From positions 36,890,001 to 36,954,000 of the forward strand of contig OZ024745.1 in the NCBI GenBank assembly GCA_964016885.1: a stretch of DNA of 64,000 nt, given 5' to 3'. Origin of the DNA: Eledone cirrhosa (taxonomy: Eukaryota). Position numbers and translations under genes: made by a program. Of this stretch, positions 18,237 through 22,450 are shown in pieces (within the stretch, counting starts at the first letter, position 1; each line of letters opens with the position of its first letter). The notes beneath the pieces are model-generated. The model saw only the letters and a list, made by a program, of their open reading frames with translations. It was not told the origin of the DNA and searched no databases.

Positions 18237-18685
18237 GAAGACGACCTTAAGTAGGAGCAATAACATTAAGATAGATATGGACGACGCCACATCATTTTGT
18301 TTTGAAAATTTTGAAAGTATGTTTATAAGTATGAATTTTCATAGGAGTTTCGTAGTTTTCTTTGTAGCCTAGCAGTAGGTACTAGAGACGGTGGAGATCC
18401 TGGCCTTTTGTTCAATCCTAGTCAATGGGGCACTAAATGAATGATATTAATTTTAATATGTTCAATCCTGAACATTCAGTTTTATTTTACAACCAATAGA
18501 AAAAAACCGAAAAGGTTTACCGGGAACCTTATTCCCGATCAGGATCGAACTTTAGACAAGGATCACCACCGTCTATGATTCCTCCAACTAGGCTACCGAG
18601 ACAGCTATAAAAGTATAATGGAAATTGATAATTATAAACCTACTTTCAAAATCAAAGTTAAGGTAATTGATGACATCAGTCGTAT
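18237..18685. mobile_element. Repeat carrying two convergent tRNA-like cassettes (copy 1)
   Basis: Cassette B on + (18364-18420) and cassette A on - (about 18535-18605). Homologous to 22041-22450. Confidence 0.7.
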
Positions 18686-19314
18686 ATATATATATATATA
18701 TATATATATACGACTGATGTCATCAATTACCTTAATTTAAATGTAAATATACCCAGATTAAATCAAAGCCCACCACGATCCCAAGAAAAGGTAAATTATA
18801 CGCCTACAACAATTGCCCCCAGTCTATACGTATCAGACATGGCTACATGTTATACATTGGTGATACATAATCTGATACAGAATCCAATATGAAGTGTAGA
18901 ATCAAATATATCTGATATCACAGTTTCACCTTTGCTGATACGCACGTGCTCACACACACACACACACACATACACATATAGACACACACACGTGTGTGTG
19001 TAGTGAGTGAGTGTGTTTACATATATATGAAATGAATTTCATATAAGAAAATCTAGGGTTAAATTCTAACACTCACTGGTAAAACATAAGAAAATATAAA
19101 TACATAGTTACCCTCTTTGTACAGATAAAAATATTAGGATTGTCCTTGCATATTTTTAGCTTATTGGTTAATCAACAGAAGGCAAGTAACCCTATTTTCT
19201 ACCTTCAAGCAGAACAATAACAAATAACTATTAATATCAAATACTATCCTGGAATCGGCTAAAATAACTAATATATTTGGCATAATTTGCATTCATTGAT
19301 AATGTGATTAATTA

Positions 19315-19484
19315 CCGTATTTCCCGGCGTCGAAGACGCTACTTTTTTCCTAAAATAAGTTTCAAAAATCTATCGTGAGTCCTGGAGGCCGAAGGTTGTT
19401 TATTATTTTTTATTTCAAATTTTTAGTTGTCAAAATTAAGGTGCGTCCTCGAGGACGAAGCGTTTCCGGCGCCGGGAAATACGG
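19315..19484. mobile_element. Tc1/mariner-superfamily (pogo/Tc2-like) MITE
   Basis: 15-bp perfect TIR CCGTATTTCCCGGCG / CGCCGGGAAATACGG, flanked by TA on both sides. Confidence 0.85.
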
Positions 19485-20723
19485 TAAATAATTAAATACT
19501 TATTCACGAAAAACACAGTTTATATTATACATTCTTACTCTGTTCGAACATAAAGAAATATTTGTTTTTGTATGATATAAATATAGGTCTATTTACACCG
19601 GTATAAAATTAATATCATTCATTTAGTGCCCCTTGTTGTATATCAAGATTCTAGGGTTTGTAAAATTGAGATCGATAAAATAAGTATCAGACTGAAATAA
19701 GTTCTGAGGTTTATATGTTCCCCTAAACTCTTGAAGGCGGGGGTCATTGCATGGCCGACTTCCAATAACTGAAACCCCTAAAAGTATAAAGAATTTGTGC
19801 GTGTATATGTATGTAAGTATATATATATATATACTTACATACATATACACACACACACATACATACACACACATACATACATGCCTACATACATAGATAC
19901 ATACATGCATACATACATGCATACATACATAAAACTTTGTGAAATTATAAAACCAGAAGAACATACATACATACATACATACATACATACATACATACAT
20001 ACATACATACATACATACATACATACATACATACATACATACATACATACATACTTCGACATACAGTCTGACTGATTGGAAAACCAGATAGATAGATACA
20101 TGTTATTATTGTCTTCTTTATTTCCCTATTCCTATGCACATAGAAGATATTCATGTATACTTTATGTGGTCATAAATCTAAATATAGTTGTACGTATGTA
20201 TATTTCTTAACGGTGATGAATTTTTCTAAATCCACAAAATACATCATCCTGTCACTTACAGCAAACGGAGTAGCAATAATTGTAGGAAGATTTAGTAATA
20301 AAGTTGAAATGTCAGAAAGTAAACGTAGAGTCGGTAGAAGCTGGTGGAAGTAAGAGAAAGAGAATTGAATAGGAATGAAGAGGTGATAGGGGAGAGATGT
20401 ATAGATGGGTGTTGGTGATAGTATTATTGGTGGTGCTGCTGATGCTGATGCCGGTGATGGTGTGAGAGGAGAAGGATGAAGAGGGAAATGTTGGTTTTGG
20501 GGTGAAATAAGAAGTAATTTATAATCAGCCACTGAAAATATTTTTTTAAAATTATAGAAAAGAAAGAAGGAAAGGTTAAGAAAAAGATAGAGAAAAGGGA
20601 AGAAAAAAGGACTGAAGAAAAATAATGAAAAGAAGAAATAAAAAAAGCAAACAAACAACAAAGAAGGAAACTACAATGTCGAAAAAACTAATCGTTATTT
20701 AAAATGTCATTTCAAATATATTG

Positions 20724-20759
<36 letters not shown>

Positions 20760-20798
20760 TGCATATGTGTGTGTATATGTATGTGTGTGTGTGTGTGT

Positions 20799-20845
<47 letters not shown>

Positions 20846-21294
20846 TGTTAGTGTTTGTGTGTTTATGTATGTGTGTGAATTTTCCTCGATTATACAAGTT
20901 CTGCGACTTGGTTGGTTTCCATTCTCCGTTGAATCCGGTTCACTTCATTAAAGCTGCTTATATTTATAGAATTATATGGTGTAGCAATTGAATCTATTCT
21001 GTGAGGTAAATTGATTCTTTTTTTTTTTTTTTGTAATTAAAATTTCGAAATATGAACAACCTACAAATAACAAAGGGTCAGTTTATACATAAAGAAATAC
21101 ATCTTTTGATATGTCGAGGTGTTTGGATTATTTGAAATTCGAAACGTTGAAAAGAAATATTGTAATCACTTGTAGGCAGAGGAAAATGAAAAAAAAAAGG
21201 TAAGTGGATCATATATGGCACGGGGGCAGTTTGAGTAGAACTACTCGCCTCAAGTTCTAGCTCTTTTATTCTGATCTATTTCTTATAAATATAT

Positions 21295-21517
21295 CAGTGG
21301 CGGACTGGGTCTTAAAATATTGGTTGCCAGGAGATGAAGGGGGCCCACCTACATAAATATATGGCTATCATTTAATTTTTATAATGAATAAGTAACATTT
21401 TCTAAAAATACATAAGTGGAAACAAAGCAGTCCAATCAAATTTTTGCGGAAAAATATGTTACCTTCTCCAATAAAACATATTATGTATTTTGCGAATGAG
21501 GCTTTCAATAATGACCT
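21295..21517 (+). mobile_element. hAT-type terminal fragment
   Basis: Starts CAGTGGCGGACTGGG and is the reverse-complement homologue of 17870-18085. Confidence 0.65.
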
Positions 21518-21572
21518 TTGGTCTTTCACAGTCACTCAATATATATATACTCAATCAATATATACATATATA

Positions 21573-21649
<77 letters not shown>

Positions 21650-21847
21650 TATAAACGTTTGTATATGTATAATAAAGCCAAAACAATGCAGGTATGGACA
21701 TAGAATAAAGAATGCAAATGCAAAAGATATTGTTGACAATTAGTCTTTTACCTTAGATTTATTTAAATGTCCTATAACCTCCTCCATATATATATATATA
21801 TATGTATATATTGATTGAGTATATATATATATATATATATTGATTGA

Positions 21848-21891
<44 letters not shown>

Positions 21892-22040
21892 GGAAAATCA
21901 ACAGAGACGACAACGAGCGAAAACAAAGCAAAACGAAAAAAAAAATAAATTAAAGGATAGACCTTTTTTGCAGAAAACTATCTTACCTTCTCTAATAAAA
22001 ATATTATGTATTTTGCGAATGAGGCTTTCAATAATAACCA

Positions 22041-22450
22041 GAAGTCGACCCTAAATATTATTAATAGCTCTAGGAACGCCATGAACGACACCACATATTT
22101 TTAACTTTGATTTTGAAAGTAGGTGTATAATTATCAATTTTCATCATACTTTTGTAGCTGTATCGGTGGCCTAGTTGGAGGAATCATAGACGGTGGTGAT
22201 CCTACTCTGAAGTTCGATCCTGGTCGGGAGGAGGGTTCCCAGTAAACATTTTCAGTTCTTTTCCTATTGGTTGTAAAATAAAAACTGAAACAAGGTTACT
22301 TGACCAGGATTGAACCCAAGGCCGGGATCTCCACCGTCTCTAGTACCTATCACTAGGCCACAGAGACAACTACGAAAGTCTTATGAAAATTTATACTTAT
22401 AAACTTACTTTCAAAATGTTTAAAACAAAGTGTTGCGGTCAGTAGTTCGT
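22041..22450. mobile_element. Repeat carrying two convergent tRNA-like cassettes (copy 2)
   Basis: Cassette A on +: A box TGGCCTAGTTGG (22167), B box GTTCGATCC (22212). Cassette B on -: TGGCCTAGTG (22360) and GGTTCAATCC (22316). Confidence 0.7.

Follow-up and report, generated by a model that had tools for sequence, protein, structure and literature searches.

Two copies of a palindromic repeat with convergent Pol III-type units in a 64-kb window of Eledone cirrhosa DNA

A 64,000-nt stretch of the Eledone cirrhosa genome (assembly GCA_964016885.1, contig OZ024745.1, positions 36,890,001 to 36,954,000 of the forward strand; hereafter the window, in which all positions below are counted) contains two copies of a short, non-coding repeat in which two related cassettes of RNA polymerase III (Pol III) type, A and B, face each other. 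Copy 1 occupies 18236-18682 with the order B>,<A, and copy 2 occupies 22040-22455 with the order A>,<B; a third full copy was not found in the 64-kb window, which is AT-rich, dense with microsatellites and transposon fragments, and octopus-like in the style of its SINEs and microsatellites. The repeat is palindromic in build, keeps its promoter spacing without gaps, has T-runs in both arms, is abundant in reads and, at the A end, carries flanks specific to the arm type. The reading that we favour, with moderate confidence, is a high-copy, non-autonomous foldback repeat resembling MITEs (miniature transposable elements with inverted repeats), the two copies being opposite orientations that have each lost one end. 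The original prediction, made from the letters alone, had described an unclassified repeat in which two Pol III-type units converge and keep their upstream flank, unlike a short interspersed element (SINE), which agrees with the layout. Its further proposal, that the copies are flip-flop isomers, is disfavoured by sequence comparison and by reads, the latter supporting arm-specific flanks at the A end.

Alignment confirmed two convergent related cassettes per copy in the predicted opposite orders. Copy 1 (+) at 18287-18661 aligns to copy 2 (-) at 22438-22101 with 79% identity, including a 38-nt length difference in the centre. The predicted series of a TTTTGAAAGTA..TATAA block, an A box, GACGGTGG(A/T)GATCC and a B box is present in all four cassettes, and the four arms stack gap-free over 115 nt. 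Over this length the A cassettes are identical at 105/115 positions (91%), the B cassettes at 101/115 (88%), and A and B cassettes at 84-89/115 (about 73-77%); thirteen diagnostic sites split A from B, none splits left from right arms and one splits the copies. As arm homology passes through the T-runs and the centre measures only about 16 nt, the core of about 400 bp is a single diverged palindrome, with a longest stop-free stretch of 53 aa. The parts of the two copies are as follows.

18236..18308, + strand: upstream (outer) portion of copy 1 arm B, called the "leader"; the ATGRACGAC.CCACAT motif starts 88 nt before the A box
18309..18423, + strand: copy 1, cassette B; TATAA at 18324, A box at 18365, B box at 18410
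18427..18455, + strand: copy 1, central 29-nt insert, identical to the reverse complement of 19604-19632
18500..18651, - strand: cassette A of copy 1, including its 3' trailer and T-runs; TATAA at 18636, A box at 18595, B box at 18550, first T4 at 18513
18655..18738, no strand: truncated outer end of copy 1 arm A, where (TA)n at 18683-18710 is the centre of a near-perfect palindrome with 25-nt perfect unique arms
22040..22110, + strand: upstream (outer) portion of copy 2 arm A, called the "leader"; the motif starts 86 nt before the A box, and most A-arm reads carry it
22111..22263, + strand: copy 2, cassette A with trailer; TATAA at 22126, A box at 22167, B box at 22212, T-runs from 22249
22264..22279, no strand: short unique centre between the arms, common to copy 1 by comparison of the copies
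22280..22416, - strand: copy 2, cassette B with trailer; TATAA at 22401, A box at 22360, B box at 22315, T5 at 22284
22417..22455, - strand: truncated outer end of copy 2 arm B, with homology to the inner half of the copy 1 leader
22456..22561, no strand: (TA)n of copy 2 (22456-22471) and a mirror of 22360-22455, about 100 nt and 93% identical

The 29-nt insert in the centre of copy 1 is likely a templated insertion, presumably left by repair. Left of 18236 the sequence has no similarity to the flank of copy 2 (z -1.2).

The promoter-like layout is uniform. In all four cassettes the A box follows TATAA by 41 nt and the B box follows the A box by 45 nt, the latter being the spacing found in tRNA genes, and every cassette has a run of at least four T's 22-32 nt past the B box. 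A generic A-plus-B-box pattern matched seven sites in the window, four of them these cassettes, compared with a mean of 0.29 and a maximum of 3 in 100 shuffles. According to the available text of PMC7279448, a TATA-like box at about -30 aids type-2 Pol III promoters. Judged from sequence, the layout would serve either the synthesis of two separate RNAs of about 90-110 nt or just the binding of TFIIIB/TFIIIC, both roles being predicted. The predicted RNAs of copy 2 would have their 3' ends at about 22249 and 22284, i.e. about 30 nt apart; in reads, T stands at both 22258 and 22263 in most copies, so that arm A has a longer second T-run. Because the T-runs would end both predicted RNAs before any overlap, complementary transcripts are not expected, and the convergent complementary small RNAs proposed earlier are unlikely.

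The cassettes were also considered as tRNA genes, and this identity was ruled out: ARAGORN found no tRNA gene in the window, no cassette matched the Rfam tRNA family (RF00005) at E<=10, and the cassettes fold no better than shuffles (z +1.7 to -0.9), with no conserved fold. Rfam gave nothing on the cassettes except one weak palindrome match, and all its matches within 18000-23000 fall below the gathering score and lie on TA hairpins or simple repeats. Elsewhere in the window there are tRNA-derived SINE-like heads at 57302-57359 (-) and 1128-1237 (-), the first of which exceeds the Rfam tRNA gathering score (31.2 bits), and a tRNA-like head at 9820-9890, which is unrelated to the cassettes by profile search.

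An interior that inverts within a fixed frame predicts that the frame is as conserved as the interior. The left leaders are alike in 49/74 columns (66%; z 8.7; 0/2000 shuffles as good) and the right ends are 45% alike (z 1.6; 131/2000 shuffles as good), compared with 88-91% for the interior, so that a flip-flop is unsupported; the value for the leaders lies near that between A and B cassettes (73-77%). The right end of copy 2 resembles the leader of its own arm type, that of copy 1, in 24/38 columns (z 5.2); the right end of copy 1 resembles its own arm-type leader in 24/36 columns (z 3.9), partly via 11 shared nt beside the cassette. Of the predicted shared left leader and (TA)n right end, we could retain the similarity of the leaders beyond chance and the arrival of both right ends at (TA)n, and not a single fixed frame common to both copies. 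The invertible Pol III module likewise found no support: the arm identities, the 13 against 0 diagnostic sites and the linkage in A-end reads fit a leader that belongs to a symmetric inverted arm, the alternative against which the prediction had been set, with the B end masked.

The reads were compared with copy 2 as the reference (21990-22500). Eleven runs were listed, three of them with more than half of the sequence words and none recorded as RNA; four of the 11 were aligned to this reference, giving 3,511 of 17,142,217 contig records from the same organism and 1,128 of 12,467,656 raw restriction-site-associated DNA (RAD) reads from another sample of the same species. The results below come from the 40 variants listed of 251, the 16 loose ends listed of 326 and the 10 pieces listed of 3,546; the B-end stretch 22442-22500 was masked as repetitive, and nine loose ends were left out there. 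Where copy 1 parts from copy 2, raw depth shows no step (384 at 22097-98, 383 at 22103), and no loose end at 22098-22103 is among the 16 of 326 listed. Further out, depth falls to 265 at 22077, and the drop equals in number the 119 reads with one alternative flank, which resembles the copy 1 leader as judged by eye. Five variant sites, including a B-like base at 22131, have 122-126 reads each; these near-equal counts suggest one linked read class, the linkage being by counts and not per read. Contig depth is 44,000-58,000 in the copy 2 leader and 30,000-35,000 in cassette A, and hence the leader is not below the cassette. In both left arms homology reaches back 127-129 nt from the A box, and reads take it further upstream.

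The same data bear on the size and diversity of the family. Summed contig depths, set against a single-contig depth of 4-17, indicate that copies are likely in the thousands, depth not being a copy count, and the contig records are 85-99% identical with several arm subtypes. Loose ends at 22328 (72 reads) and 22368 (78 reads) belong to a further cassette subtype with the same A-box region and upstream spacing and a different B-box region and flank, and the family therefore comprises more than two types of arm. Where read ends accumulate, at 22132, 22136, 22388 and 22391, an AATT site is present, and these ends are library cuts. At the B end, coverage holds to about 22439 and then drops to at most 6.5 of about 127 reads and to 46/5,345 of the contig depth at 22440-41. 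Runs of two other organisms gave one record each, over 34 nt, which is not evidence of the repeat there; two exact patterns had no matches in viral contigs and metagenome contigs, and one of them also none in prokaryote genomes.

The A arms extend beyond the leader. In reads they continue at least 25-50 nt past the leader of copy 2: 148 reads cover 22024 compared with 249 at 22061, and 54 share a loose end at 22021. The reads share insertions at 22017 (78/94) and 22020 (64/93). The coverage at 22024 and these insertions suggest that the family runs on into a stretch shared with a hAT-like end, and position 22041, once given as the left end of the element, is passed by reads and is no family terminus in many copies. 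The sequences concerned are listed here (TIR, terminal inverted repeat).

21965..22039, + strand: stretch that continues copy 2 arm A to the left, with 92% identity to both 21441-21516 and 17870-17945; its right part is entered, with small indels, by reads of the family
21295..21516, + strand: left end of hAT-like type, starting with CAGTGGCGGACT; the 75 nt on its inner side have homology to the left continuation of copy 2; possible carrier end
17870..18085, - strand: second copy of the hAT-like left end, 150 nt from copy 1 and facing away; begins CAGTGGCGGACT at 18085
23337..23372, - strand: hAT-like right end, inverted to 21295; matches the 21295 end

The TIR pair 21295/23372 encloses copy 2; its flanks are TA-rich, and no 8-bp target duplication was found there. 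No hAT TIR pair encloses copy 1, and the flanks of copy 1 have no similarity to the hAT-like left or right ends. The ends at 21295 and 18085 are presumably hAT-like, an assignment that we base on TIR style and on comparison with the element at 26543-30850. The latter is a decayed DUF4371 (ZMYM1-like) hAT with both TIRs and an 8-bp target duplication, located inside a (GT)n tract and with its frame broken by stops; a protein search with a fragment of it gave 18 matches, for example from fish, coelacanth, frog and Hydra, the closest at 45-59%. Its TIRs start with the same 8 letters (CAGTGGCG-type, with one mismatch at the left end), but since they differ after 8 nt this element is not shown to be the partner. 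We give about an even chance to a Pol III module that would be carried by a hAT-type transposase via ends further out, with the link of module to ends being a putative one.

The hAT-like repeat also forms an inverted pair, 17425-18085 and 21295-21965, which is 92-98% identical in blocks and brackets what lies between the two copies. That the hAT-like end and copy 2 were simply duplicated together in inverted form was rejected, as the order on the left side is not a mirror image. Within the bracketed region, a small element with terminal inverted repeats at 19311-19488 is pogo/Tigger-like by the style of its ends.

At both cut ends the (TA)n run is the centre of a palindrome, which the original prediction had overlooked. 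The distance from the A box to the start of the (TA)n run is 88 nt at one cut end and 96 nt at the other, and in intact arms the conserved motif starts at 86-88 nt; the mirror at copy 2 stops at about the predicted start of transcript B. There are 57 TA runs of at least 14 nt in the window, of which eight have palindrome arms, or three after setting aside five with simple-repeat arms. One scan identified six palindromes with unique arms, four of them without a TA centre. These six, together with larger palindromes (10057-11524, 55959-56266 and 57578-57984) and the 29-nt templated insert, indicate that fold-back events are common in the window.

Near-perfect palindromes made of mixed repeat pieces are found at 8384-8499, 9250-9317, 10057-11524, 38346-38473, 46882-46990, 55959-56266 and 57578-57984. 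The palindromes of the window seem to reflect fold-back duplication that is frequent in this genome, or perhaps an assembly artefact. A short GC-rich repeat family occurs in palindromic and scrambled forms at 6050-6123, 8365-8499, 9670-9787 and 46535-47135, and a suspected hammerhead near 6145 (6060-6230) was discarded with no Rfam match.

Under the foldback reading, one Pol III-type unit with its upstream flank would have been duplicated inversely by a snap-back or fold-back event, of the kind that produced other palindromes in the window, the arms would then have diverged with the promoter spacing kept, and the module would have spread as DNA. Movement at the DNA level is suggested by the retained upstream flank and by the T-runs, which would stop Pol III before the partner arm; for these reasons the predicted transcripts could not be the transposition intermediate. 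The leader motifs may be upstream promoter or transposase-binding sites common to both arms, and the right ends may have been made by breakage at (TA)n and fold-back repair.

Several observations weigh against this reading. The right ends match the leader of their own type at just 63-67%, far under 88-91%, and a short ACTGA is common to both of them. One contig (record 4) departs at 22100 like copy 1, and the copy 1 base (A) at 22430 is present in just 61/5,345 of the contig depth, the raw reads giving 69/121 with two starts. The drop in coverage at 22440-41 fits a family end unlike that of copy 2, but one substitution could cause it. Sampling by RAD is biased, and short-read libraries tend to lose palindromic fragments, which limits all of the read results. 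Two of the three (or eight) palindrome-centred TA runs are the cut ends described here (post hoc P 0.002-0.018), and random decay explains these ends poorly, since both stop at the same motif edge and are palindrome-centred. Six boundary pairs tested for target-site duplication gave just 5-6-nt AT matches, and the left flank of copy 2 may be a local chimera with the adjoining hAT-like repeat.

The peculiar cut ends allow two related readings, both of which we regard as unlikely. One is a DNA-level counterpart of TRIMp3, the tRNA-promoter group of TRIMs (miniature retrotransposons with terminal repeats): two facing full Pol III promoters, motif-cut ends capped as (TA)n hairpins, palindromic replication intermediates and either arm serving as the hairpin end; we would give it a small chance. 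The other, a processing of hairpin ends, is doubtful on present evidence. It holds that the motif 86-88 nt upstream of the A box is a nick or resolution site and that an end which is cut, capped by (TA)n and replicated to a palindrome makes the copies look like isomers. Both cut ends indeed stop at the motif edge, are centred on palindromes and lie in different arms, with a 93% identical mirror of 105 nt in copy 2; but the A-arm reads nearly all continue into the leader, four of the six unique-arm palindromes counted in the window lack a TA centre, and the two cases, chosen post hoc, have no replication protein linked to them. The hairpin-type replication raised in the original prediction thus has some support from the palindromes at both cut ends, in contrast to the invertible module.

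A retro-mobilised element with inverted terminal repeats, that is, one whose partner is DIRS-like or Penelope-like, or else an inverted counterpart of TRIMp3, moving through a read-through Pol III transcript, appears improbable. Broken frames resembling reverse transcriptase and endonuclease at 48129-50325 (-) and about 15000-16400 (+) look Penelope-like and could point to such a partner in the window; the two frames at 48129-50325 had no Pfam match. In the available text of PMC10886601, Helenus, Ajax and Cassandra have Pol III promoters in their terminal repeats with upstream sequence kept. Against this, the arms here are inverted and 23-27% diverged, while retro-copying keeps terminal repeats near-identical, T-runs follow both cassettes and the centre has about 16 nt. 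The hammerhead core motif CTGANGA is absent from either strand of both copies, and no Rfam hammerhead reached the gathering score in the window.

We consider it equally improbable that the cassettes are a host pair of small Pol III RNA genes, amplified passively inside repeats or segmental duplications with no mobility of their own. Promoter spacing strictly kept across 25% divergence would suit such a pair, as would the presence of two copies within 4 kb beside copies of one hAT-like repeat, in a locally rearranged block; the thousands of contig records, 85-99% identical and of several arm subtypes, the lack of a conserved fold and the single record from each of two other organisms argue against it. 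Least probable is a true flip-flop, in which the A/B interior would invert by recombination between the inverted arms inside a fixed leader...(TA)n frame: similar leaders on the left and (TA)n on the right of both copies, the shared ACTGA, the copy 2 base kept in most of the contig depth at 22430 and the contig departing at 22100 are in its favour, but the frame (66% and 45%) is far less alike than the interior (88-91%), no site in 115 nt separates left from right arms, and neither a depth step nor, among the 16 of 326 listed, a loose end occurs at 22098-22103.

SINEs and TRIMs are known carriers of Pol III promoters. If the repeat described here moves as DNA, it would represent a third route by which TFIIIB/TFIIIC sites and small-RNA sources are scattered through an animal genome, and one that automated pipelines would probably label as a SINE. 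Fold-back repair at (TA)n has a tractable example in the palindromes at the ends. With the flip-flop set aside, this is a discovery at the level of curation and not a new mechanism.

Among known systems, MITEs and foldback elements are similar in being short, non-coding and of high copy number, with long inverted arms around a tiny centre and insertion in either orientation; unlike them, the arms here are 23-27% diverged (73-78% alike by one measure), each is a full Pol III-type unit, and neither true termini nor a target duplication were found. tRNA-derived SINEs share the A and B boxes at tRNA spacing (45 nt in 4/4 cassettes) and the high copy number; the repeat here differs in its conserved upstream flank of at least 130 nt, its paired convergent heads, its internal terminators and the lack of a LINE-like tail. 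Classification as a SINE failed on two points: homology does not begin at the transcription start, and there is no 3' tail with target duplication, as (TA)n lies upstream of the nearer promoter and T-runs come after each head. The SINE-like heads of the window at 57359 and 1237 are without the upstream block of the cassettes. The octopus SINEs OK, OR1 and OR2 were reportedly described by Ohshima and Okada in 1994.

TRIMp3 elements (Helenus, Ajax, Cassandra) are TRIMs with tRNA promoters, direct long terminal repeats (LTRs), a primer binding site and a polypurine tract, and among molluscs are given for bivalves only in the available text of PMC10886601, where the words "inverted" and "cephalopod" do not occur. 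As described in that text, they resemble our repeat in being non-autonomous and in having tRNA-type boxes in terminal repeats, upstream sequence kept and no tRNA fold; they differ in their direct, near-identical LTRs, their 4-5-bp duplications and their transcription from LTR to LTR, whereas the repeats here are inverted and diverged with a T-run at each. With inverted repeats that are about 73-77% alike, the element does not belong to TRIMp3. The rodent 4.5SH and 4.5SI genes, according to the available text of PMC7279448, likewise have, besides A and B boxes, other conserved motifs upstream and a TATA-like box roughly 30 nt ahead of the expected start, but here the units form a convergent pair in a repeat, with a promoter layout known from sequence alone.

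The DUF4371/ZMYM1-like hAT elements are comparable in that CAGTGGCG-type ends are found both on 26543-30850 and on the short repeat sharing 75 nt with the copy 2 flank; the link from module to ends depends on that one shared stretch, and the TIRs differ after 8 nt. DNA transposons harbouring a 5S promoter sequence exist, as stated in the available text of PMC10946416, so that there is some precedent for Pol III promoters within DNA elements. The layout had no match in the available texts of PMC4758252, PMC8967140 and bioRxiv 10.64898/2026.07.22.740005, and the open literature yielded no description of two convergent Pol III units placed in inverted arms, with Repbase, Dfam and subscription papers, which may hold the family, outside the scope. 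A search of papers by DNA strings matched one unrelated paper. For Octopus vulgaris, the available text of PMC13282606 counts 893 recently active SINE families and 49 TIR families that are all unclassified, and the repeat could sit among these.

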